Virus record (IMG/VR): IMGVR_UViG_3300018876_000008
Location: 96,001-160,000 of that record
From: a virus
Strand: one strand, 5' to 3'
Length of the DNA stretch: 64,000 nt
Position numbers and translations under genes: made by a program. Every line of letters starts with the position of its first letter. Position 1 is the stretch's first letter. Of this stretch, positions 20,857 through 54,626 are shown piece by piece. The notes below the pieces were generated by a model, which saw only the letters and a program-made list of their open reading frames with translations, had not been told where the DNA came from and searched no databases.

Positions 20857-21747
20857 TTATCTAAATAATGTCACATGTCCGTGAGTTTTTATCCCATAAC
20901 CAGGACGAGTAGCCTCTAATTTCCAAGTATAAACACCATCGGGACAATAATAATCTCCACTATATGGTAAAAACCAACTCAATTCGGGAAGAGGTGCCCC
21001 CGTCCAATTAGCTAAAGGATAGTCAGTTCTCCATACTAAATTGCCCCATCTATCGTAAATTTTCATATCCCACGTTAACCAACAATCAGCTTCAGTTACT
21101 ACCCTAAATGATTCGTTTTTACCATCTCCGTTTGGTGTAAATGCGTTAGGAATATATAAGTCATCATCAACACATGGAACAACTGGTCCGTCATTGGATG
21201 AATTACAATCAGGGTTTGTTAGTGAGAAGGTAACTATGTTATTTAAGGGTTCCACATCAGGATAGTCAAAGTTTCCTAAACCACTATCACTTTCGTATGG
21301 CCAAGTATTACTATCGTTTATTTGAGTTATGGAAAGAATCCAACATTGTTCATCAAAGAATCCATCATTTATTGCCTCCTCCCAACAAAAGCTGGCGTCT
21401 GAACCGGTAACAAATGCGTCTACAATGTTAAAAGTAACTTCATCACCTGTTTGTAACCAAGGACCTGGTGAATTAATATTGACTAAAGGAAAACTTACAG
21501 GGTAGATTAAAAGTGCCCAACCATTATCATAAAAACACGGATATGGGTAGGTATCTAATTGTGGTTCTGTAGTTATACCTAATAAAAATTCACCGATTGA
21601 ATCAGAAGGTGAACCACAATTTACTCCTGAATTCACGTATAAAGTAATATCCATGGTTTGAGGGTCAAATGACACAATTTCCATATCACATTGACCTTTC
21701 ACTATGAATGAAATAAATAATAAAATTAATGTAAGTGGGTTTTTCAT
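20857..21747 (-). CDS. Secreted protein with T9SS type-B (gliding motility-associated) C-terminal domain
   Basis: Signal peptide (VKG/Q); IPNAFTPNGDGKNESF, IYDRWGNLV, DGVYTW, GHVTLFR. Confidence 0.9.
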   Translation of the reverse strand: MKNPLTLILLFISFIVKGQCDMEIVSFDPQTMDITLYVNSGVNCGSPSDSIGEFLLGITTEPQLDTYPYPCFYDNGWALLIYPVSFPLVNINSPGPWLQTGDEVTFNIVDAFVTGSDASFCWEEAINDGFFDEQCWILSITQINDSNTWPYESDSGLGNFDYPDVEPLNNIVTFSLTNPDCNSSNDGPVVPCVDDDLYIPNAFTPNGDGKNESFRVVTEADCWLTWDMKIYDRWGNLVWRTDYPLANWTGAPLPELSWFLPYSGDYYCPDGVYTWKLEATRPGYGIKTHGHVTLFR

Positions 21748-23603
21748 CTGAATATAGTTATATGTCCCCTTTCTTCAATTATCAATGCACTATTTACTTT
21801 CTTACCTGTAACTACATAAACGTATAGCCCGTCAGAAACGTAATGATTTCCTCCATTCACACTTCCATCCCAATAAGGATAGTCGTCAAAATTATCACCA
21901 GTATTGTAATACACTTCATTTCCCCATCGGTTAAAAATTCTAAATTCAACGTTTTCCCAACAGTTTAAATCATAGATTAGTTTCCACACATCGTTAATTC
22001 CATCATTATTTGGTGTAAAAGTATTAGGAATATGGATAGTTGTCCAATCAGGACATATTAAACCTGGTGGGTCTTCATCACAAGGTAATCCCGTTTCACA
22101 GTCAATCCAAATTTCTTGTACAACATACTCGGTAACTGTGTCAGTTAGGTATATGTAATTATCAATAAAGACTGTATCTGTAAGATACTCTGTTATGTAA
22201 AGGGTGTCAGTTATGAATTCTGTTTCAGTTAAATAAATCGTATCTGTAACTACTTCTGTAATATACAGTGTGTCTATAATGTATTCTGTTTCTGTAATAT
22301 AGAGTGTATCTGTGACGTATTCTGTGATATATTCATAAACAGTATCTGTTACATACTCTGTTACATACTCAGTTATATATTCATAAACTGTATCCGTTAA
22401 GTAAATATAATTATCCACATACTCAATTAAAGTATCAGGTGGTGACTCAACATAAAGAGTGTCTATAATAGTATCAGTTATAAAGATAGAATCGATTTCA
22501 TAGATATAAGTTACCGTTTCAATTTCAATAGTATCTGGCTCACAAACCTCAGGACAGATTAAATCTTCTAATTCATCAGGATAGTAAACGGTAGTGTTAT
22601 TGTTACCCGTTACAATCTCATCATTAACATTATCAACAGTCATTGTAAAGAAACTACCTAATGCGTCATATTCAAAGAAAGGTGAGGTGAATTGTTGACC
22701 CTCACCTACAGGAATATCATACCCACCAAACATAGAATCATCAAAGCATTGATAGTAATCTTCATTCCATATCTCAATACAGTAATTTGTGATAGGTTCA
22801 TTACCGTAATTGTAAACGGTATAAGTTATTTGATATGAGGGAATATCACCAATACACCCTATTTCAAATTCTATATTATCAATAACAGCATCAGGGGCAT
22901 CGGGAGGACAATCAAAATCGGGAGAGGCTACTGCCGCACCGGGATTCTCATCTCTACATAGGTACCAAGAATTATTACAATTTTGGTCTTGATATGTATT
23001 TGGTGCGAAATCGGGATTAGTTGACGAACTTGCCCAACCTCCGTTTCCAACATACCAAGAAGAACCATAATTTACCTGCCACACAACAAATTCAATACAC
23101 TCATCTTCAGATAACCAATAATCTATTAAGTCATCACCACACTCGGCAAGTGGATATGGATATGTATCATAATCTCCAGGTGGGTTTAAAGGGATATTTA
23201 CAACATCTCCTGTTACTAAACCGTCTCCCATTATCTCTTCCTGAAAAGTAACAGACGCTGAAGGACTGTACCACCAACCCGGATGATTATTATCGGGATT
23301 CTGACCCAAGTAGTATCCATTAGCATCCCATCCTGGACTACATGGTGGTAATCCAAATGTTTCATTAAAATCTTCAATGACTTCATTATCGGGATTTATA
23401 GGTTCAGGAAGATGATAACCTATCTGTAATTGTGTAACTTTACCGTTTACACCACCAGGACCGTTTGATAAACATCCTAGTGAATTAATTACCTCAATGG
23501 TGACTTCGTATGTGTTAAGGTCAACAGCGGTAATTGCGACATCACATTGTCCTTGTATAAAAAAGGCATGTAGATATGCTATAAGAAATAATAGTCTTTT
23601 CAT
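21744..23603 (-). CDS. Secreted repeat protein with T9SS type-B C-terminal domain
   Basis: Signal peptide (IQG/Q); CARDB-like segment; TDTxYITE repeats; IPNTFTPNNDGINDVW, IFNRWGNEV, WDG, DGLYVY, GHITIFR. Confidence 0.9.
   Translation of the reverse strand: MKRLLFLIAYLHAFFIQGQCDVAITAVDLNTYEVTIEVINSLGCLSNGPGGVNGKVTQLQIGYHLPEPINPDNEVIEDFNETFGLPPCSPGWDANGYYLGQNPDNNHPGWWYSPSASVTFQEEIMGDGLVTGDVVNIPLNPPGDYDTYPYPLAECGDDLIDYWLSEDECIEFVVWQVNYGSSWYVGNGGWASSSTNPDFAPNTYQDQNCNNSWYLCRDENPGAAVASPDFDCPPDAPDAVIDNIEFEIGCIGDIPSYQITYTVYNYGNEPITNYCIEIWNEDYYQCFDDSMFGGYDIPVGEGQQFTSPFFEYDALGSFFTMTVDNVNDEIVTGNNNTTVYYPDELEDLICPEVCEPDTIEIETVTYIYEIDSIFITDTIIDTLYVESPPDTLIEYVDNYIYLTDTVYEYITEYVTEYVTDTVYEYITEYVTDTLYITETEYIIDTLYITEVVTDTIYLTETEFITDTLYITEYLTDTVFIDNYIYLTDTVTEYVVQEIWIDCETGLPCDEDPPGLICPDWTTIHIPNTFTPNNDGINDVWKLIYDLNCWENVEFRIFNRWGNEVYYNTGDNFDDYPYWDGSVNGGNHYVSDGLYVYVVTGKKVNSALIIEERGHITIFR
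22120..22540 (-). repeat. Coding repeat region (DT-V/L/I-Y-I/E-T-E units)
   Basis: About a dozen degenerate TDTVYEYITEYV / TDTLYITE units within the 619 aa ORF. Confidence 0.85.
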
Positions 23604-23755
23604 TAATGGAAAGTTTAGTTGTTTTATATAAGAATCGTATGTCTAATTTTTAATTTGTAGAAGATTATAATTAAAAAGTTAGACAAGTATAACAGTGTTT
23701 CCTATAAATATATAACTAAACTTGTTAATACTATACTTTTTTAACACTAAAAAAG

Positions 23756-24043
23756 TTAAATTGTTAACATAACTAGAGCTCTATCAAAATCTGCAAACTC
23801 TTTATAGGTTTTGGCTCTACGAACGGTATTAGGGTTTACACGAAGACGAACATGTGTAGGGTATTTTTTTTCAGACTCTTTCCTTTCTCTATTAACTTTA
23901 GAAATTGCCTCACGTTTAGTTTTTGCCCAAACATTATTACCCCCTGTGGTTGGTTGGAAGTCTTTATTTCCCGTTGTCCCTGCGGGTGCTTCCAACCAAC
24001 CAAACATATAAAGGTTCTCACCTTTTTGATTCTTGTATGCCAT
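23756..24043 (-). CDS. Hypothetical protein
   Basis: 95 aa basic ORF. Confidence 0.7.
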   Translation of the reverse strand: MAYKNQKGENLYMFGWLEAPAGTTGNKDFQPTTGGNNVWAKTKREAISKVNRERKESEKKYPTHVRLRVNPNTVRRAKTYKEFADFDRALVMLTI

Positions 24044-24051
24044 ATTACTAC

Positions 24052-24231
24052 TTAGTTTAAAATTGATTTACCCAATACCAAAGGAGATGCGTCAGGATGC
24101 GACGATACTAAAAAGCAATTATCTCTTTCAGTAATGTAAAGTGTTTTGTTTTTGAACATTTTGTAGTTGTTGTATGCGTACTCCTCAACTTTTGATTTCA
24201 CTTCCGGTGCGATTGTTTCTTCTTTACCCAT
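24052..24231 (-). CDS. Small hypothetical protein (59 aa, not in ORF track)
   Basis: MGKEETIAPEVKSKVEEYAY...SPLVLGKSILN*; TATATTTG upstream. Confidence 0.65.
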   Translation of the reverse strand: MGKEETIAPEVKSKVEEYAYNNYKMFKNKTLYITERDNCFLVSSHPDASPLVLGKSILN

Positions 24232-24318
24232 GATTTTTAATTTTTAAATGTTTAACTGTTTTGATGATACAAATATAAGTAATAATTCTTTAAGTTTTAC
24301 TAAAAATATTATTTTTTT

Positions 24319-24456
24319 TTAAATTCCTATAACAACTTCTTTATTAATCCAACCTACACATAATTCTAAATCACCATTTAGAAATCTATCGTAAGTTATT
24401 TTGATATATGGTATAATATAAATTTGAGATACTATAGTTGATATTGATATTTTCAT
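24319..24456 (-). CDS. Small hypothetical protein (45 aa, not in ORF track)
   Basis: MKISISTIVSQIYIIPYIKITYDRFLNGDLELCVGWINKEVVIGI*; 4 nt after the previous stop. Confidence 0.55.
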   Translation of the reverse strand: MKISISTIVSQIYIIPYIKITYDRFLNGDLELCVGWINKEVVIGI

Positions 24457-24460
24457 AATT

Positions 24461-24760
24461 TTAAAATAAAAGTGTTAAATAATAAGCTAATTTATATCCT
24501 ACAAACGCCCCTATTGCGGTTGGTACGGGAAATATGATAAATTTACCTAAACTTGTCACGTATTTAGGTCTATTAACTACTCTCCCTAAGAAAAAATAGT
24601 AAATCATATAACCTAATAGTACTAATATATCTACTCTTTCCGCAATAAAAACAACTAATATTGCCCCAAGTAGACCAAATATAAAGTTATCCAAAACAGC
24701 AGTTGTTAATTCGATTGTTGGTGTTTCTCGATACTCTTCTTGTATTTTTTTAAGACTCAT
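24461..24760 (-). CDS. Three-TM membrane protein
   Basis: 99 aa, three hydrophobic helices. Confidence 0.75.
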   Translation of the reverse strand: MSLKKIQEEYRETPTIELTTAVLDNFIFGLLGAILVVFIAERVDILVLLGYMIYYFFLGRVVNRPKYVTSLGKFIIFPVPTAIGAFVGYKLAYYLTLLF

Positions 24761-24775
24761 TATAAATAAATTTTG

Positions 24776-24849
24776 AGCTTCCTGAGGGACTCGAACCCAC
24801 GACCTGCTGATTACAAATCAGCTGCTCTAGCCAACTGAGCTAAGGAAGC
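24776..24849 (-). tRNA. tRNA-Thr(TGT)
   Basis: Cloverleaf; anticodon loop TT-TGT-AA; no encoded CCA. Confidence 0.95.
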
Positions 24850-24852
24850 TTT

Positions 24853-25068
24853 TTATACTAATTTCCATTTTTTGGCAGATTTGACTATCGCCTCTTCATT
24901 TGTTAAATTTGGTTCCTCTCTAATTATATCCATTGCAGTATACATTATTTGACCCTTTAATCCTTTTTTACTTGCTAAGTCTAAAACGTCAACATAATAA
25001 TTAGGGTCAAATTTTGGTAGTGTACCGTCTTCTTCCATGTCTGCAATTTTACTAAGTATATTACCCAT
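24853..25068 (-). CDS. Hypothetical protein
   Basis: Start at MGNILSK (25068), downstream of TATATTTG. Confidence 0.65.
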   Translation of the reverse strand: MGNILSKIADMEEDGTLPKFDPNYYVDVLDLASKKGLKGQIMYTAMDIIREEPNLTNEEAIVKSAKKWKLV

Positions 25069-25199
25069 AAATGTTTTTTTTATTAGAGTACAAATATATG
25101 ATAAATGCATGAAAAAACCAACATTAAGTATAAAAAAGTTACCTAATGATGGTTTTTTACTGCATAATTAAAAAAGTGAATTCTTTAACGGTTTATTGA

Positions 25200-25535
25200 T
25201 TATCCGTTAATGACGGAATTATTGTTTTCATCTAATTGTCTATAAATTTCTGATACGTGTTCGCTCATAATATTTATAGTTTTATCAACTCTACTGTCAA
25301 TATGACTATAAAGTCTCTCATTCTCTTCTTTACAATTACGGTCAATGTTATTCCCAAAATCATAAAGTTCAGAACTTCTTTTCTCCAAATCCATATGGGT
25401 ATATTCCAATTCTTTTTGGAGTAGGTTTATTTCCTCTTTCAAGGACTTTGTTGTCAAATAATTCACAAACGTACCCACAACCATTAATAATACAATGACT
25501 GCACATACACCTAAAATAAATGATGTTATTTCCAT
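25200..25535 (-). CDS. TM plus coiled-coil protein
   Basis: N-terminal TM helix then heptad-like region. Confidence 0.75.
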   Translation of the reverse strand: MEITSFILGVCAVIVLLMVVGTFVNYLTTKSLKEEINLLQKELEYTHMDLEKRSSELYDFGNNIDRNCKEENERLYSHIDSRVDKTINIMSEHVSEIYRQLDENNNSVING

Positions 25536-25562
25536 AATTTCTAATTTTTAATTTAAATTTTA

Positions 25563-25574
25563 TGTCAAAGAACT
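25563..25574 (-). promoter_or_regulatory. boxA-like antitermination site
   Basis: AGTTCTTTGACA just downstream of tRNA-Tyr. Confidence 0.55.
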
Positions 25575-25582
25575 CACCTCGT

Positions 25583-25663
25583 TGGAGAGGAGGGACTCGA
25601 ACCCCCAAGGTCGAAAGACGGCAGATTTACAGTCTGCTGAGCCAACCAATTGCTCAACTCTCC
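25583..25663 (-). tRNA. tRNA-Tyr(GTA)
   Basis: GCAGA-CTGTAAA-TCTGC arm, long variable arm. Confidence 0.95.
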
Positions 25664-25669
25664 ATTTAA

Positions 25670-25792
25670 TTATTTAAATTTTGATTTAATGAACAGGTAG
25701 AGACTTTCGAAGATATGATACAACAATAATCCAACCATCCACGATACTAAACCAAATACTAATGATGCAATAATAAATCTAAATATTTCCAT
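25670..25792 (-). CDS. Small membrane peptide between tRNAs (40 aa)
   Basis: MEIFRFIIASLVFGLVSWMVGLLLY...; the longer ORF-track version runs into tRNA-Ser. Confidence 0.5.
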   Translation of the reverse strand: MEIFRFIIASLVFGLVSWMVGLLLYHIFESLYLFIKSKFK

Positions 25793-25824
25793 GATTTTAT
25801 TTTTTTTATAGTTTAAGAGTTTAG

Positions 25825-25909
25825 CGGAAGATGTAGGATTCGAACCTACGGTACATTGCTGTACGCTGGTTTTCAAGACCAGTGCATTCGACCACTCTGC
25901 CAATCTTCC
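25825..25909 (-). tRNA. tRNA-Ser(TGA)
   Basis: CTGGT-CTTGAAA-ACCAG arm, long variable arm, discriminator G. Confidence 0.95.
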
Positions 25910-25914
25910 GTCTG

Positions 25915-25988
25915 TGGACCTTGTAGGGCTCGAACCTACGACCTACGCATTATGAGTGCGGTGCTCTAACCAACTGAGCTAAAAGTCC
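25915..25988 (-). tRNA. tRNA with CAT anticodon, most likely tRNA-Ile2
   Basis: Loop CT-CAT-AA; paired G1-C72 and no GGG/CCC anticodon stem, so not initiator; Ile2 versus elongator Met is inferred. Confidence 0.85.
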
Positions 25989-26005
25989 GTTATTCAAAAA
26001 TATCT

Positions 26006-26086
26006 ACTCCACTTAGACTCCGTCTTTCGACTTGTAGGCGTGAGATTTGACGCCTCGTTGTTCGGTTGTTAAACCTATCTAAGAGC
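26006..26086 (-). ncRNA. Putative four-way-junction structured RNA in the tRNA array
   Basis: Closing helix CTTAGA/TCTAAG around GGTT-TAAC-AACC, AGGCGT-N8-ACGCCT and GTC-GAAA-GAC. Confidence 0.5.
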
Positions 26087-26203
26087 GGGGGAGTAGGGGA
26101 TTCGAACCCCCACCTCTTCTCAACAAGCCTAATCGTATCTCGTAACTAGTATGATATTTTCGGCCTTATAGTTGGAGCGTCGTACCACTTTGACTAACTC
26201 CCC
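26087..26203 (-). ncRNA. tRNA-like RNA with enlarged anticodon arm (117 nt)
   Basis: Acceptor GGGGAGT/ACTCCCC, D arm GTC-AAAGTGGTAC-GAC, T arm GGGGG-TTCGAAT-CCCCT; 66 nt between D and T arms. Confidence 0.75.
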
Positions 26204-26211
26204 GTATTTAG

Positions 26212-26285
26212 TACACCCATCAGGATTCGAACCTGAGACCGTCTGCTTAGAAGGCAGATGCTCTATCCAGCTGAGCTATGGGTGC
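26212..26285 (-). tRNA. tRNA-Arg(TCT)
   Basis: TCTGC-CTTCTAA-GCAGA arm. Confidence 0.95.
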
Positions 26286-26357
26286 ATGTGAAAAAGATAG
26301 GGTTCTTTTTTAAAGTTACATAGTTCCAACGCGTATTGTGTAACTCCCTATCTATAG

Positions 26358-26443
26358 TACCCGGAGACGGGCTCGAACCGTCACGGACCGTTCGGTCCAA
26401 CAGATTTTAAGTCTGTCGTGTCTACCAATTCCACCATCCGGGC
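26358..26443 (-). tRNA. tRNA-Leu(TAA)
   Basis: ACAGA-CTTAAAA-TCTGT arm, long variable arm. Confidence 0.95.
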
Positions 26444-26549
26444 ATGTGGTACTAATTTATAATTTCAAATAACGTTTTTGTCTTTCAACAATGTAAATGT
26501 ACGATACAAAAGATTAAGTAACAACTATTTTTTTAAAATAATTTAATTG

Positions 26550-26623
26550 TAGGGATGGAGGGACTTGAACCCCCGACCTTGACTATATAAGAGTCCTGCT
26601 CTAACCAACTGAGCTACATCCCC
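26550..26623 (-). tRNA. tRNA-Ile(TAT)
   Basis: GACT-CTTATAT-AGTC arm; anticodon TAT. Confidence 0.9.
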
Positions 26624-26676
26624 ATGTTGAAAACACCTATATTTTATGTAGAGGTGCAAAACTCGATTTGTATTGG

Positions 26677-26752
26677 TGGTGACCCCTCAGGGGTTCGAAC
26701 CCTGGACCCTCACATTAAAAGTGTGATGCTCTACCAGCTGAGCTAAGAGGTC
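26677..26752 (-). tRNA. tRNA-Lys(TTT)
   Basis: TCACA-CTTTTAA-TGTGA arm; encoded CCA. Confidence 0.95.
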
Positions 26753-26787
26753 AATTTACCGAATACTGTGTCGTTACTTAATCCCGA

Positions 26788-26798
26788 TGTCAAAGAAC
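26788..26798 (-). promoter_or_regulatory. boxA-like antitermination site
   Basis: GTTCTTTGACA between the attenuator terminator and the first tRNA. Confidence 0.65.
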
Positions 26799-26809
26799 AC
26801 TACTAATAT

Positions 26810-26846
26810 AAAATAAGAAACCCAAACATTTCTGTTCGGGTCTCTT
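26810..26846 (-). terminator. Intrinsic terminator of the putative tRNA-operon attenuator
   Basis: AAGAGACCCGAACA-GAAA-TGTTTGGGTTTCTTATTTT; G-U pairs and U tract on the minus strand. Confidence 0.85.
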
Positions 26847-26896
26847 CTTCTTCATAGCTTTAAGTCTATTTTTATTATATCATGTTTACCGAACTT

Positions 26897-26968
26897 TTAC
26901 ATAATATTATAGAACCTTATTATTGATAAGCTTCTTAATATTGATATGTATGTTTTCGATTTGTACAT
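26897..26968 (-). CDS. Putative attenuator leader peptide of the tRNA operon (23 aa, not in ORF track)
   Basis: MYKSKTYISILRSLSIIRFYNIM*; 14 of codons 2-18 are exact cognates of the nearby tRNAs. Confidence 0.75.
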   Translation of the reverse strand: MYKSKTYISILRSLSIIRFYNIM

Positions 26969-27004
26969 TTTAAAATAGTCTTTTAATTGTCTGTTTGTAT
27001 ACTA

Positions 27005-27035
27005 CAAATATACTCCATTTATTTCTATTGTCAAA
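27005..27035 (-). promoter_or_regulatory. Bacteroidota-type promoter of the tRNA operon
   Basis: TTTG (27032-27035), 19 nt spacer, TATATTTG (27005-27012). Confidence 0.8.
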
Positions 27036-27036
27036 T

Positions 27037-27417
27037 TTATTTTGAGATATTTCTTCTTCTAAACCAAATTTTTGCACCAAATACTACTAATGTAATAAAC
27101 ACAAGACCGATAAGGAGGAAGAAACCACGATATGAATCTGTAGGTGAAAGTTCGTAAGTTAGTAAAGTCCATCCTGAAATGTAACCAAACCACAAAGTGA
27201 CCCAAATAAAATCAGGAATTCTCTTAGTTTTTTTCTCAATCTTTAAAACTCTTTCATCATGTACTACACGACTAAGTGCGTCCTGTAAATCTTTACCATA
27301 TGCGGGTACGGTCTCAAATGTACCGTCTATATTTTGAATAGTAACTTCATACTTCAACCATCCTTCAAAAGTTTCACTTTCCTTTCTAAGTTCAACTTGA
27401 ACCGCCTTTCTTTTCAT
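27037..27417 (-). CDS. Membrane protein
   Basis: 126 aa, two C-terminal TM helices. Confidence 0.75.
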   Translation of the reverse strand: MKRKAVQVELRKESETFEGWLKYEVTIQNIDGTFETVPAYGKDLQDALSRVVHDERVLKIEKKTKRIPDFIWVTLWFGYISGWTLLTYELSPTDSYRGFFLLIGLVFITLVVFGAKIWFRRRNISK

Positions 27418-27557
27418 AATATTATATTTTTTACTTTAACTTAATCTAAAACCTATAAACCATAAATCAACTCTAAAAAATTTATTTCCTTTATTTAATC
27501 CAAAACCAATACGTAACATACGATTTTGTTTATCTAAAATTATTTTAGTTAGTTTCA

Positions 27558-28172
27558 TTAATTTATGATTCTACCATCTTGAGTATAAATTTCTACCGTT
27601 GCTGCTTTACCCATATTATCCATCCATTCATGAATTTCTAAGAGTTGGTCTTTGAAGAAAATTCTAGAAACAAAATCCCATTCACCGTCAGGTGTGTCAA
27701 TAGAACCTCCCATAACCGAGAAATCCTGTGCAACCGGAATTTGTTCTGATTCAAACATCATTTCGTAAATCCCTCCTTTTTGTTCATCAATAATGAGTAA
27801 AACATGTTCGACACCATCGTCACGATAATGAGGAGATGCTAGAAAAGATTGGTACGGGTACATCTCGTCTACATCTCCAACATTCTCATATTCATCACCT
27901 AAGTCTTTTTCCTCAAATTCGGCAACTACATTATCATTTTCATCTATAACTTTAAAAAAAAGTCTACCGTTATAAAATGGTGCGGACATTTGGAACATAT
28001 CGGGGTCCCACATATCATCTATAATATCATCCTCCATAAGGTGCCTAACTTCCCATAGTTCGTCACTATTATTATCTCTCATAAGGATATCCACCTTTTC
28101 TAATTGTTCATCATTTAAAGAATGTGCCACGGATTCCATAGACCATCCATAAACTTCCAACTTGTACTTCAT
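27558..28172 (-). CDS. Acidic hypothetical protein
   Basis: 204 aa ORF. Confidence 0.8.
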   Translation of the reverse strand: MKYKLEVYGWSMESVAHSLNDEQLEKVDILMRDNNSDELWEVRHLMEDDIIDDMWDPDMFQMSAPFYNGRLFFKVIDENDNVVAEFEEKDLGDEYENVGDVDEMYPYQSFLASPHYRDDGVEHVLLIIDEQKGGIYEMMFESEQIPVAQDFSVMGGSIDTPDGEWDFVSRIFFKDQLLEIHEWMDNMGKAATVEIYTQDGRIIN

Positions 28173-28184
28173 TTTGATTTACTG

Positions 28185-28877
28185 TTAATTTAAAAATTTA
28201 ATTTGATTTGTATTTGGGTCCCAATCCACTGTTAAGGGTTTGTTTTTAAAAATATAATCTTCACCCAATACTGAAGCGTTAATGTAATGGGTTCCATTAT
28301 CGAACTTATAACCGTATCCGCTATGAATATGGCCAAAAACGTGTATCTTAGGTTTAACGACCTTTAAACGTTCTGCCAATAGTTCACAACCAAGATTATC
28401 ATATCGACCTACTACAGTATCTAAACATCCTTTAGGGGGTCCATGAGTGATAAGAATATCAATATCATTAGGTATGATACTCCATTTATGTTTTAATTCT
28501 TCACTGTTACGTGGTAGATTAAAAGCCCAATTGTAGAACTCAGGTTGCCATGGAGTTCCCCATACTTTTACTGATGACTGATAATCGTCCCCAATAATTT
28601 GTAAGTCATCTTCAAGATAACTTACATTAAGGTAATTAGAAACAATTTCTTTAGCCAATTTAGGGTTATCCTCAAACATAAGGTCATGATTACCTGCAAT
28701 AACAATTTTATTTGTGTAATTCTCTAAATCATTAAACCAATCCATAAAACCATCAACCTCATGTTCATAACCTCGTGAAGTAAAATCACCCGCATGGATT
28801 AGTAAATCACCACCTGGTAATTGAGATGTCACTTGACGATGTTTCGTGTGTGTATCGGATATGAATGTGATTTTCAT
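28185..28877 (-). CDS. Metallophosphoesterase (calcineurin-like)
   Basis: ISDTH, HAGD, AGNHD, ITHGPP, FGHIH; start at MKITFISDTH. Confidence 0.95.
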   Translation of the reverse strand: MKITFISDTHTKHRQVTSQLPGGDLLIHAGDFTSRGYEHEVDGFMDWFNDLENYTNKIVIAGNHDLMFEDNPKLAKEIVSNYLNVSYLEDDLQIIGDDYQSSVKVWGTPWQPEFYNWAFNLPRNSEELKHKWSIIPNDIDILITHGPPKGCLDTVVGRYDNLGCELLAERLKVVKPKIHVFGHIHSGYGYKFDNGTHYINASVLGEDYIFKNKPLTVDWDPNTNQIKFLN

Positions 28878-54205: not shown

Positions 54206-54589
54206 TGGTGGAGGTGGCGGGATTCGAACCCGCGTCTTGCTCGTATTACCCTATAAAGGACTACACGTTTAGGACAATATTGATTCTCAATATTCCGAAA
54301 TATGTGATTGAATTTTTACATCCTCCATCACCAATAGATGTACGACTCGATTTAAGGTTCGGTCGTTTTTCCACCTTTGTAAGACTTCTGTTCCTAGGTT
54401 ATATGTCCCGACCCGTTGTGGTGTAACGTCTTACGCTACAGCCACTTCTTCAGTACGAACAAGTCCGATAGCCTGAAGTTTTGCGATAGTTTCGCCAGAT
54501 AAAAATTGCGTCCATAGATTTAAGTGATAGGATACATCTCACTACGTGCCCCGTATAACTAATTCCGCCAATCAATTCCATTCACCCCC
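54206..54589 (-). ncRNA. ssrA: tmRNA
   Basis: 5' GGGGGTG pairs with 3' CACCTCC-A-CCA including the G3-U Ala determinant; T arm GCGGG-TTCGAAT-CCCGC; tag frame 54431-54496 GETIAKLQAIGLVRTEEVAVA*. Confidence 0.93.
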
Positions 54590-54592
54590 ATA

Positions 54593-54626
54593 TTTTCAAA
54601 GAACTTACTTTATAGGTACAAATATA
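54593..54626 (-). promoter_or_regulatory. tmRNA promoter (-7 element) and boxA-like site
   Basis: TATATTTG at 54619-54626, then AGTTCTTTGAAAA at 54593-54605. Confidence 0.7.

Follow-up and report, generated by a model that had tools for sequence, protein, structure and literature searches.

A putative codon-matched leader attenuator upstream of the tRNA array of a probable Bacteroidota phage

Introduction

Attenuators of the thrL, ilvGMEDA leader, trpL, hisL, leuL and pheST type consist of a short translated leader with matched control codons and of RNA segments that pair as 1:2, 2:3 or 3:4 helices, the position of the ribosome deciding kinetically which helix forms. In Bacteroidota, leader-peptide attenuators have been inferred upstream of amino-acid biosynthesis operons of Flavobacterium psychrophilum (PMC9723704), and Bacteroides 5' UTRs contain sORFs (PMC7366714). 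The trn operon of Anabaena, a tRNA array on a cyanobacterial megaplasmid, has a repressor, TrcR, and is induced by translational stress (PMC10272220). Among phages, T5-like SP15 expresses anti-defence tRNAs from a very strong promoter, and demand sensing is not described in the accessible parts of the two reports (PMC11464382, PMC11555353). It has long been asked whether phage tRNA arrays answer to codon bias or replace the tRNAs that a host destroys.

Here we analyze a viral locus for which a sequence-only reading had proposed a leader-peptide attenuator that senses tRNA depletion and switches on a phage tRNA array, a kind of control for which it knew no precedent in phages. A literature search, with most subscription papers outside its reach, likewise found no published attenuator of tRNA genes; leader-peptide attenuation as such is known, and what appears new, probably, is its trp-operon-style use on tRNA genes. 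We consider it likely, from sequence and comparative data, that the locus encodes a multivalent ribosome-mediated attenuator, which would set phage tRNA output by the decoding speed of the cognate codons.

Results

The window, that is the whole stretch of 64,000 nt analyzed here, belongs to a linear record of 169,337 bp with 31.7% GC, about 56% complete. The host of the phage is probably a member of the Bacteroidota, since intergenic promoters follow the consensus TTTG...TAnnTTTG and two tandem ORFs nearby (20857-23603, minus strand) end in a type IX secretion signal domain (PF13585). In Bacteroidota the promoter consensus is TAnnTTTG at -7 and TTTG at -33 (PMC7366714). Counted genome-wide, 15 of 24 TAnnTTTG promoters are intergenic, as are 9 of 33 of the TAnnTTTA form.

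On the minus strand we confirmed the predicted order of promoter, 23-codon leader, GTTCGG antiterminator, terminator, boxA-like motif and tRNA array, every element named by the sequence-only reading being present at its place. The promoter P1 (27005-27035), of Bacteroidota sigma-A type, reads TTTG-N19-TATATTTG, with TTTG at 27035-27032 and, 19 nt on, TATATTTG at 27012-27005; it is conserved in relatives L115, L002 and L001. The predicted leader ORF (26897-26968, 23 codons plus TAA) has a start context rich in A and lacks an obvious SD, and we infer that it is translated. Its codons 4-7 (26948-26959) form segment 1, the putative anti-antiterminator arm, and 2 nt past its stop lies segment 2, the antiterminator core GTTCGG (26889-26894), unchanged in 4/4 aligned cassettes. 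In the models, a conserved CATGATA segment (26874-26885) can form a helix with 26910-26899 at the leader 3' end; GTTCGG then lies in a 13-nt loop, and the helix may be a competitor or a pseudoknot stem. Segments 3:4 (26810-26846) constitute an intrinsic terminator with a T-rich tail, recognized by sequence and fold (core at 26840-26821; 14 pairs at 26846-26815), and the boxA-like motif GTTCTTTGAC (26789-26798) stands ahead of the first tRNA; its function we presume from its likeness to rRNA boxA. Neither an Rfam family nor T-box features (stem I with specifier loop, T-box antiterminator bulge) matched the leader in Rfam searches of 23500-28500 at E<=5 and of the whole window.

The boxA-like motif of the tRNA array also lies ahead of the phage tmRNA (region 54206-54604, minus strand; tmRNA at 54206-54589 by Rfam search of the window). 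Outside the window, at about 73014-73130 (G000 C1, plus strand), another promoter with a boxA-like motif has no tRNA called downstream, and may possibly precede an unannotated structured RNA.

Folding was modelled with ViennaRNA, which treats nested structures and leaves pseudoknots outside its scope. In the ribosome-free RNA, the partners of segment 1 are the leader 3' end and GTTCGG, and this long 1:2 hairpin (-19.5 kcal/mol) sequesters GTTCGG (P=0.94) and leaves 3:4 free; analogous 1:2 hairpins are predicted in many relatives. Such ribosome-free RNA predicts termination here and readthrough in several relatives. The duplex of GTTCGG with the terminator 5' arm reaches -9.6 kcal/mol, while the whole 2:3 hairpin reaches -5.5 and the terminator -20.2 kcal/mol. 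An earlier caveat that the antiterminator helix is short is borne out, 2:3 being a weak helix of 6 bp here. As the terminator would always win at equilibrium and 2:3 is weak, control must, on these models, be kinetic.

We then placed a modelled ribosome on the leader. With the ribosome at codons 1-5 or at about 17-21, GTTCGG pairs with the terminator arm with P of about 0.8-0.97 in nested folding. With a stall at about codons 8-15, the ATA/TTA/AGA region, a competing hairpin of the leader 3' end and CATGATA forms, 2:3 has P of about 0.01-0.36 in the nested models, and GTTCGG stays unpaired in the 13-nt loop, from which a pseudoknot with the terminator arm could rescue 2:3. Among the modelled cassettes, the antiterminator is lost in 19/20 when a ribosome occupies the stop, with a residual of about 0.3 in L222, and a mid-leader ribosome allows 2:3 in most; in L115 and L002, 2:3 is at 0.44-0.85 across mid-leader positions and is lost at the stop. 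The models suggest that the relatives switch more cleanly than the present genome does.

The codon content of the leader was compared with the array that it precedes. Exact cognates of the phage tRNAs make up 14 of the 22 internal codons, against a background of 22.9% in phage ORFs, and the binomial comparison with phage codon usage that the sequence-only reading had proposed gives P=5e-5 (p=0.229, all 22 internal codons). The enrichment has P=7e-4 against stop-free nucleotide shuffles of the leader and P=0.008 when conditioned on the peptide sequence. We also recovered its tally for codons 2-18 (14 exact cognates, plus TCG, AGG and AGC); as that range was picked post hoc, the statistics are on all 22 internal codons. 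Stop-free windows of 22 codons with at least 14 cognates occur elsewhere in this AT-rich genome, so that the count alone is not decisive and the case is carried by position and by the comparative evidence given below. In the folding models, some leader codons are moreover constrained by RNA structure.

Eight tRNAs, the same eight that had been listed before, were found by ARAGORN, and all lie in this cluster on the minus strand, the only ones in the 169,337-bp record (about 56% complete). tRNA-Lys(TTT) (26677-26752), the first gene, and tRNA-Ile(TAT) (26549-26623) are placed strictly behind the attenuator. Ahead of tRNA-Leu(TAA) (26357-26443) we find the internal promoter P2, GTTG-N20-TACATTTA (26525-26494), with a boxA variant at 26473-26464, the two together spanning 26464-26525. 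Then follow tRNA-Arg(TCT) (26211-26285), tRNA(CAT) (25914-25988), tRNA-Ser(TGA) (25824-25909) and tRNA-Tyr(GTA) (25581-25664). The tRNA(CAT) is labelled Met by ARAGORN and other automatic labels; from its identity features we take it to be probably Ile2. With tRNA-Ile(TAT) (26549-26623) and the Ile2-like tRNA (25914-25988), the array thus holds two possible AUA decoders.

P2, which the sequence-only reading had mentioned as a caveat, proved to be conserved in 5/5 compared (the window, L115, L002, L116 and L136), with the boxA variant here and in two relatives and with a full consensus, TACATTTG, in the more distant L136. TAnnTTTA promoters show no clear excess in intergenic DNA genome-wide, so that the case for P2 is made by this conservation, and it may be weak. 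The stretch from tRNA-Ile to P2 yielded no terminator, and the promoter scan gave no other promoter for tRNA-Lys and tRNA-Ile. By their position, only tRNA-Lys and tRNA-Ile(UAU) look strictly gated, and five of the seven array tRNAs, from Leu to Tyr, are probably also transcribed from P2 independently of the attenuator. The proposal that replacement tRNAs appear solely upon cleavage or scarcity of host tRNAs is thus not supported as it was worded. Leaders here and in L136 nevertheless carry codons for tRNAs after P2, which suggests that the share contributed by readthrough matters.

tRNA-Thr(TGT) (24775-24849) lies behind its own promoter (25098-25091), as had been suspected, and a small ORF, and is probably outside the attenuated operon. 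We rejected it as a member: in addition to that promoter, the leader of L002 also has an ACA codon, and tRNA-Thr is absent from the L002 record, which is 52% complete. The ACA codon of the present leader sits in a structural arm.

Three further features of the array region were observed. A tRNA-like RNA (26087-26203, minus strand; Rfam tRNA, 38.1 bits), absent from the earlier list, has its acceptor, D and T arms intact and carries, where the anticodon arm would be, a segment of 58 nt; it is conserved in L115 (9748-9864) and is not found in L002 or L116, and might represent a decoy or an intron-like insertion. L115 (9950-10185), L002 (6195-6390) and L116 (185-410) have another conserved non-coding stretch, some 200 nt long, that separates tRNA-Arg from the CAT tRNA; its beginning in L115 resembles the 5' half of a tRNA whose anticodon loop has GTT. 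Just past tRNA-Tyr, a 14-bp inverted repeat (25564-25577 and 25176-25189, minus strand) flanks a 111-aa ORF (25200-25535); its upstream arm includes a boxA-like motif, and a G-U pair here is G-C in L002 and L115. Judged by its sequence, the repeat may serve as a processing stem of RNase III type, freeing the mRNA from the tRNA precursor.

In the close relatives L115, L002 and L116 the arrays share a core of Lys(TTT), Ile(TAT), Leu(TAA), Arg(TCT) and CAT tRNAs, and tRNA-Ser and tRNA-Tyr are absent. What these relatives keep in common is the promoter, the start context, GTTCGG, the terminator and the boxA-like motif; the leader body and the spacers drift. The L115 leader also has 23 codons and its stop at the same position, and is identical to ours in 10/23 codons. 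At 13 sense codons the two differ, and six of these are Tyr or Ser in the present leader (positions 2, 4, 7, 9, 13 and 20), including one AGC that tRNA-Ser(TGA) does not read; L115 lacks both tRNAs, and most Ser/Tyr codons of the present leader are missing from its own. This comparison, a single one with the predicted direction, points to leader Ser/Tyr codons that follow the presence of tRNA-Ser/Tyr. The leader of L002 extends through GTTCGG and stops 17 nt past the GTTCGG start, so that a terminating ribosome would still be over GTTCGG.

These data bear on whether the element regulates at all. It might be vestigial or constitutive, giving a short terminated RNA, with tRNAs supplied by leaky termination and by P2, as the conserved P2, the weakness of the antiterminator and a terminator stem with a G-U substitution in this genome would allow. 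We regard this as very unlikely: close relatives keep the ORF, GTTCGG and the terminator although their spacers diverge, Ser/Tyr codons entered the leader in the lineage that has tRNA-Ser/Tyr, and tRNA-Lys and tRNA-Ile have no other promoter in the scan. Alternatively, the leader would act in trans through its peptide or through the terminated RNA, as a small protein or an sRNA, with cis-attenuation incidental. The leader region, and with it the attenuated RNA, is strongly structured relative to shuffles (z=-5.5), and attenuator-derived sRNAs and peptides exist (PMC6614838, PMC7968998); yet the peptide is unconserved, as the 10/23 codons shared with L115 and the unrelated peptides across classes indicate, whereas the cis geometry is conserved, and we give a trans role hardly any weight.

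For a family-wide comparison, pattern scans yielded 82 boxA-linked terminators and 65 cassettes whose leader was chosen by position and not by codon content. Cassettes were clustered to 18 leader classes for a permutation test, which left out L146 and one L159 cassette (mis-picked ORFs) as well as arrays with <3 tRNAs; several arrays in the set are incomplete or under-called. Over the 18 classes, the fraction of leader codons decoded by the own array is 0.44, against 0.23 when permuted, and 0/100,000 permutations reached 0.44; the covariation of leaders and arrays expected from the sequence-only reading is thus seen. The match at amino-acid level (0.51 against 0.29 permuted) and the exact-cognate share (0.24 against 0.12) were likewise reached by 0/100,000 permutations, and the leader of the same cassette contains a codon for 95% of array anticodons, compared with 59% when permuted (p printed as 0). 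Among 49 leaders scored on the array under study, its own comes first (0.76; next 0.50).

The choice between isoacceptors follows the arrays as well. Ile codons are ATA versus ATY in a ratio of 10:3 with Ile(TAT) arrays and of 1:10 with Ile(GAT) arrays (P=0.001), and Arg AGR versus CGN tracks the isoacceptor (P=0.013), both values being inflated by kinship, as three rows are related; Ser and Leu tests on the same leader/array set were not significant. Related arrays cover nearly all amino acids, and other classes have Pro/Gln/His, Asp/Glu or Cys/Trp leaders. In the attenuated arrays of L180 and L234, ARAGORN at a lowered threshold calls, between Gly and Trp, a tRNA with anticodon TTA, which would read UAA.

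An upstream complement of at least 6 nt to the own 5' arm accompanies 70/76 terminators, compared with 3% for the arms of other classes and 4.5% for shuffles; GTTCGG search patterns selected part of this terminator set, and among arm types outside that selection 29/35 also have an own-arm complement. The predicted antiterminator would be mutually exclusive with the terminator, and is conserved by covariation. A loose pattern, GTTCGG-N-CATGATATA, gave mostly chance matches in viral contigs, only L001 and L002/L086 being real.

Similar leaders are found in bacterial genomes. In Weeksella (L324), a near-identical terminator with GTTCGG and a Tyr-Tyr leader stand before TyrRS; a Cytophagaceae genome (L314) has a leader of the same design before an operon with RtcB; and in Microscillaceae and related genomes (L330/L331/L347/L348), leaders before TROVE/Ro60 sample most amino acids, suggesting, by their sequence, translation-sensing control of RNA repair in Bacteroidota. 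The phage device was probably drawn from this kit of Bacteroidota host leaders. In the phage record itself (about 56% complete), no TilS or RtcB gene was found.

A cultured phage also carries the design. In Cellulophaga phage phi4:1 (KC821632; L361 5400-9300), three promoter-leader-terminator cassettes partition the tRNA array, and their leaders match 7/7, 7/8 and 7/7 anticodons of their own tRNA block and 1-5 of other blocks. The antiterminator duplexes have -11.8 to -14.3 kcal/mol, and the second leader starts at GTG within the annotated gp075 (hypothetical). By blastn, the present leader found no match in cultured phages, where only tRNA bodies matched, and no such cassette was seen before the tRNAs examined in Bacteroides phage DAC19 and huge phage LR745206.

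With these comparisons we can weigh a sensor of translation stress or coupling in general, in which any ribosome reaching the stop in time would count and the codon match would be secondary tuning or a by-product of AT-richness and of the hairpin. Such a sensor would suit the broad host leaders of Cytophagales before RtcB/Ro60, which hold most amino acids, the folding model, which gives readthrough only from early or late stalls here, and the base composition of the leader, from which about a third of its codons are expected to be cognate. Leader codons, however, track the array between classes, within phi4:1 and between close relatives, and composition does not explain the Pro/Gln/His, Asp/Glu and Cys/Trp leaders of other classes, which makes this alternative improbable in our judgment.

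Discussion

In our preferred reading, that of a codon-matched attenuator, RNA polymerase would start at P1 and a ribosome would load on the leader. During normal decoding the ribosome would reach TAA and cover GTTCGG, or, after its release, segment 1 would re-pair with GTTCGG; with GTTCGG masked, the 3:4 terminator would form and transcription would stop before tRNA-Lys. Should charged tRNA for AAA, AUA, UUA, AGA, UCA or UAC be short, the ribosome would lag within the leader, GTTCGG would pair with the nascent CCGAAC arm, and polymerase would read on past the boxA-like motif to transcribe the array. This readthrough would be needed for tRNA-Lys and tRNA-Ile(UAU), and Leu, Arg, Ile2/Met, Ser and Tyr would have a basal supply from P2 boosted by readthrough. 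The trigger, we infer, would be a lack of functional tRNA from any cause, be it cleavage, under-modification or the drain by the A-ending codon bias of the phage. The sequence-only reading is accordingly upheld in its translation-coupled, tRNA-matched leader, through covariation, host copies and phi4:1, and is given up in its exclusive gating and in the membership of tRNA-Thr.

What the device is for is a separate matter. It could be a dedicated inducible counter-defence, a switch that detects the cleavage of tRNAs by anticodon nucleases and replaces the cut tRNAs. With phage-encoded tRNA-Lys and tRNA-Tyr, infection is rescued from PARIS, PrrC and retron Eco7/Ec78 PtuAB (PMC11464382, PMC11555353), host copies of the leader precede the RNA-repair genes RtcB and Ro60, and tRNA-Lys(TTT) is the first and strictly gated gene, so that such a purpose is plausible. 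Demand would fit equally, as five of the six non-CAT array tRNAs, and tRNA-Thr, read A-ending codons common in a 31.7% GC genome; related arrays span nearly all amino acids, and tRNA-Tyr sits behind P2. A general supply-demand sensor fits the same data as nuclease sensing, and we regard a role dedicated to counter-defence as possible though rather unlikely.

Returning to the codon-matched attenuator, we propose tentatively, as a serious possibility that may well not hold in full, that large Bacteroidota phages possess a feedback device auditing, codon by codon, the functional tRNA pool of the infected cell and resupplying missing isoacceptors, that its leader is rewritten as tRNAs are gained and lost, of which the Ser/Tyr difference from L115 is an instance, that it was co-opted from host leaders of synthetases and RNA-repair enzymes, and that it gives an inducible answer to tRNA-cleaving immunity. 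As the leader spells out the tRNAs that are monitored, readthrough would report when, and for which codon, an infected cell runs short. Attenuation would be extended from enzyme genes to tRNA genes, and phage arrays would be linked to the host control of RtcB/Ro60, the cassette being a natural multi-codon biosensor. phi4:1 on Cellulophaga baltica is a cultured phage-host pair with the device, which makes it experimentally testable.

The cassette is closest in design to the enterobacterial multivalent attenuators (thrL, ilvL), with which it shares, as seen from sequence, a leader, matched codons, alternative helices and an intrinsic terminator. It differs from them in its output, phage tRNA genes rather than enzymes, in sampling six isoacceptors by scattered codons without tandem runs, in its short 2:3 helix, and in the boxA-like motif after the terminator. 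With the leader attenuators of Bacteroidota it has the promoter type in common, and the targets of those attenuators are protein-coding, as far as the accessible texts of PMC9723704 and PMC7366714 go, whereas the phage cassette targets tRNA genes. In resemblance to the Anabaena trn operon, a quiet tRNA array would be switched on by translational stress; there a DNA-binding RHH repressor acts without codon specificity (PMC10272220), in place of a codon-matched leader. Like T-box riboswitches, the cassette would be a termination/antitermination switch reading tRNA charging, yet T-boxes bind tRNA directly and have no translated leader, and the cassette has no T-box match. Finally, as in the phages that counter PARIS, PrrC or retron Eco7, the array holds tRNA-Lys and tRNA-Tyr, potential substitutes for host tRNAs that have been cleaved.
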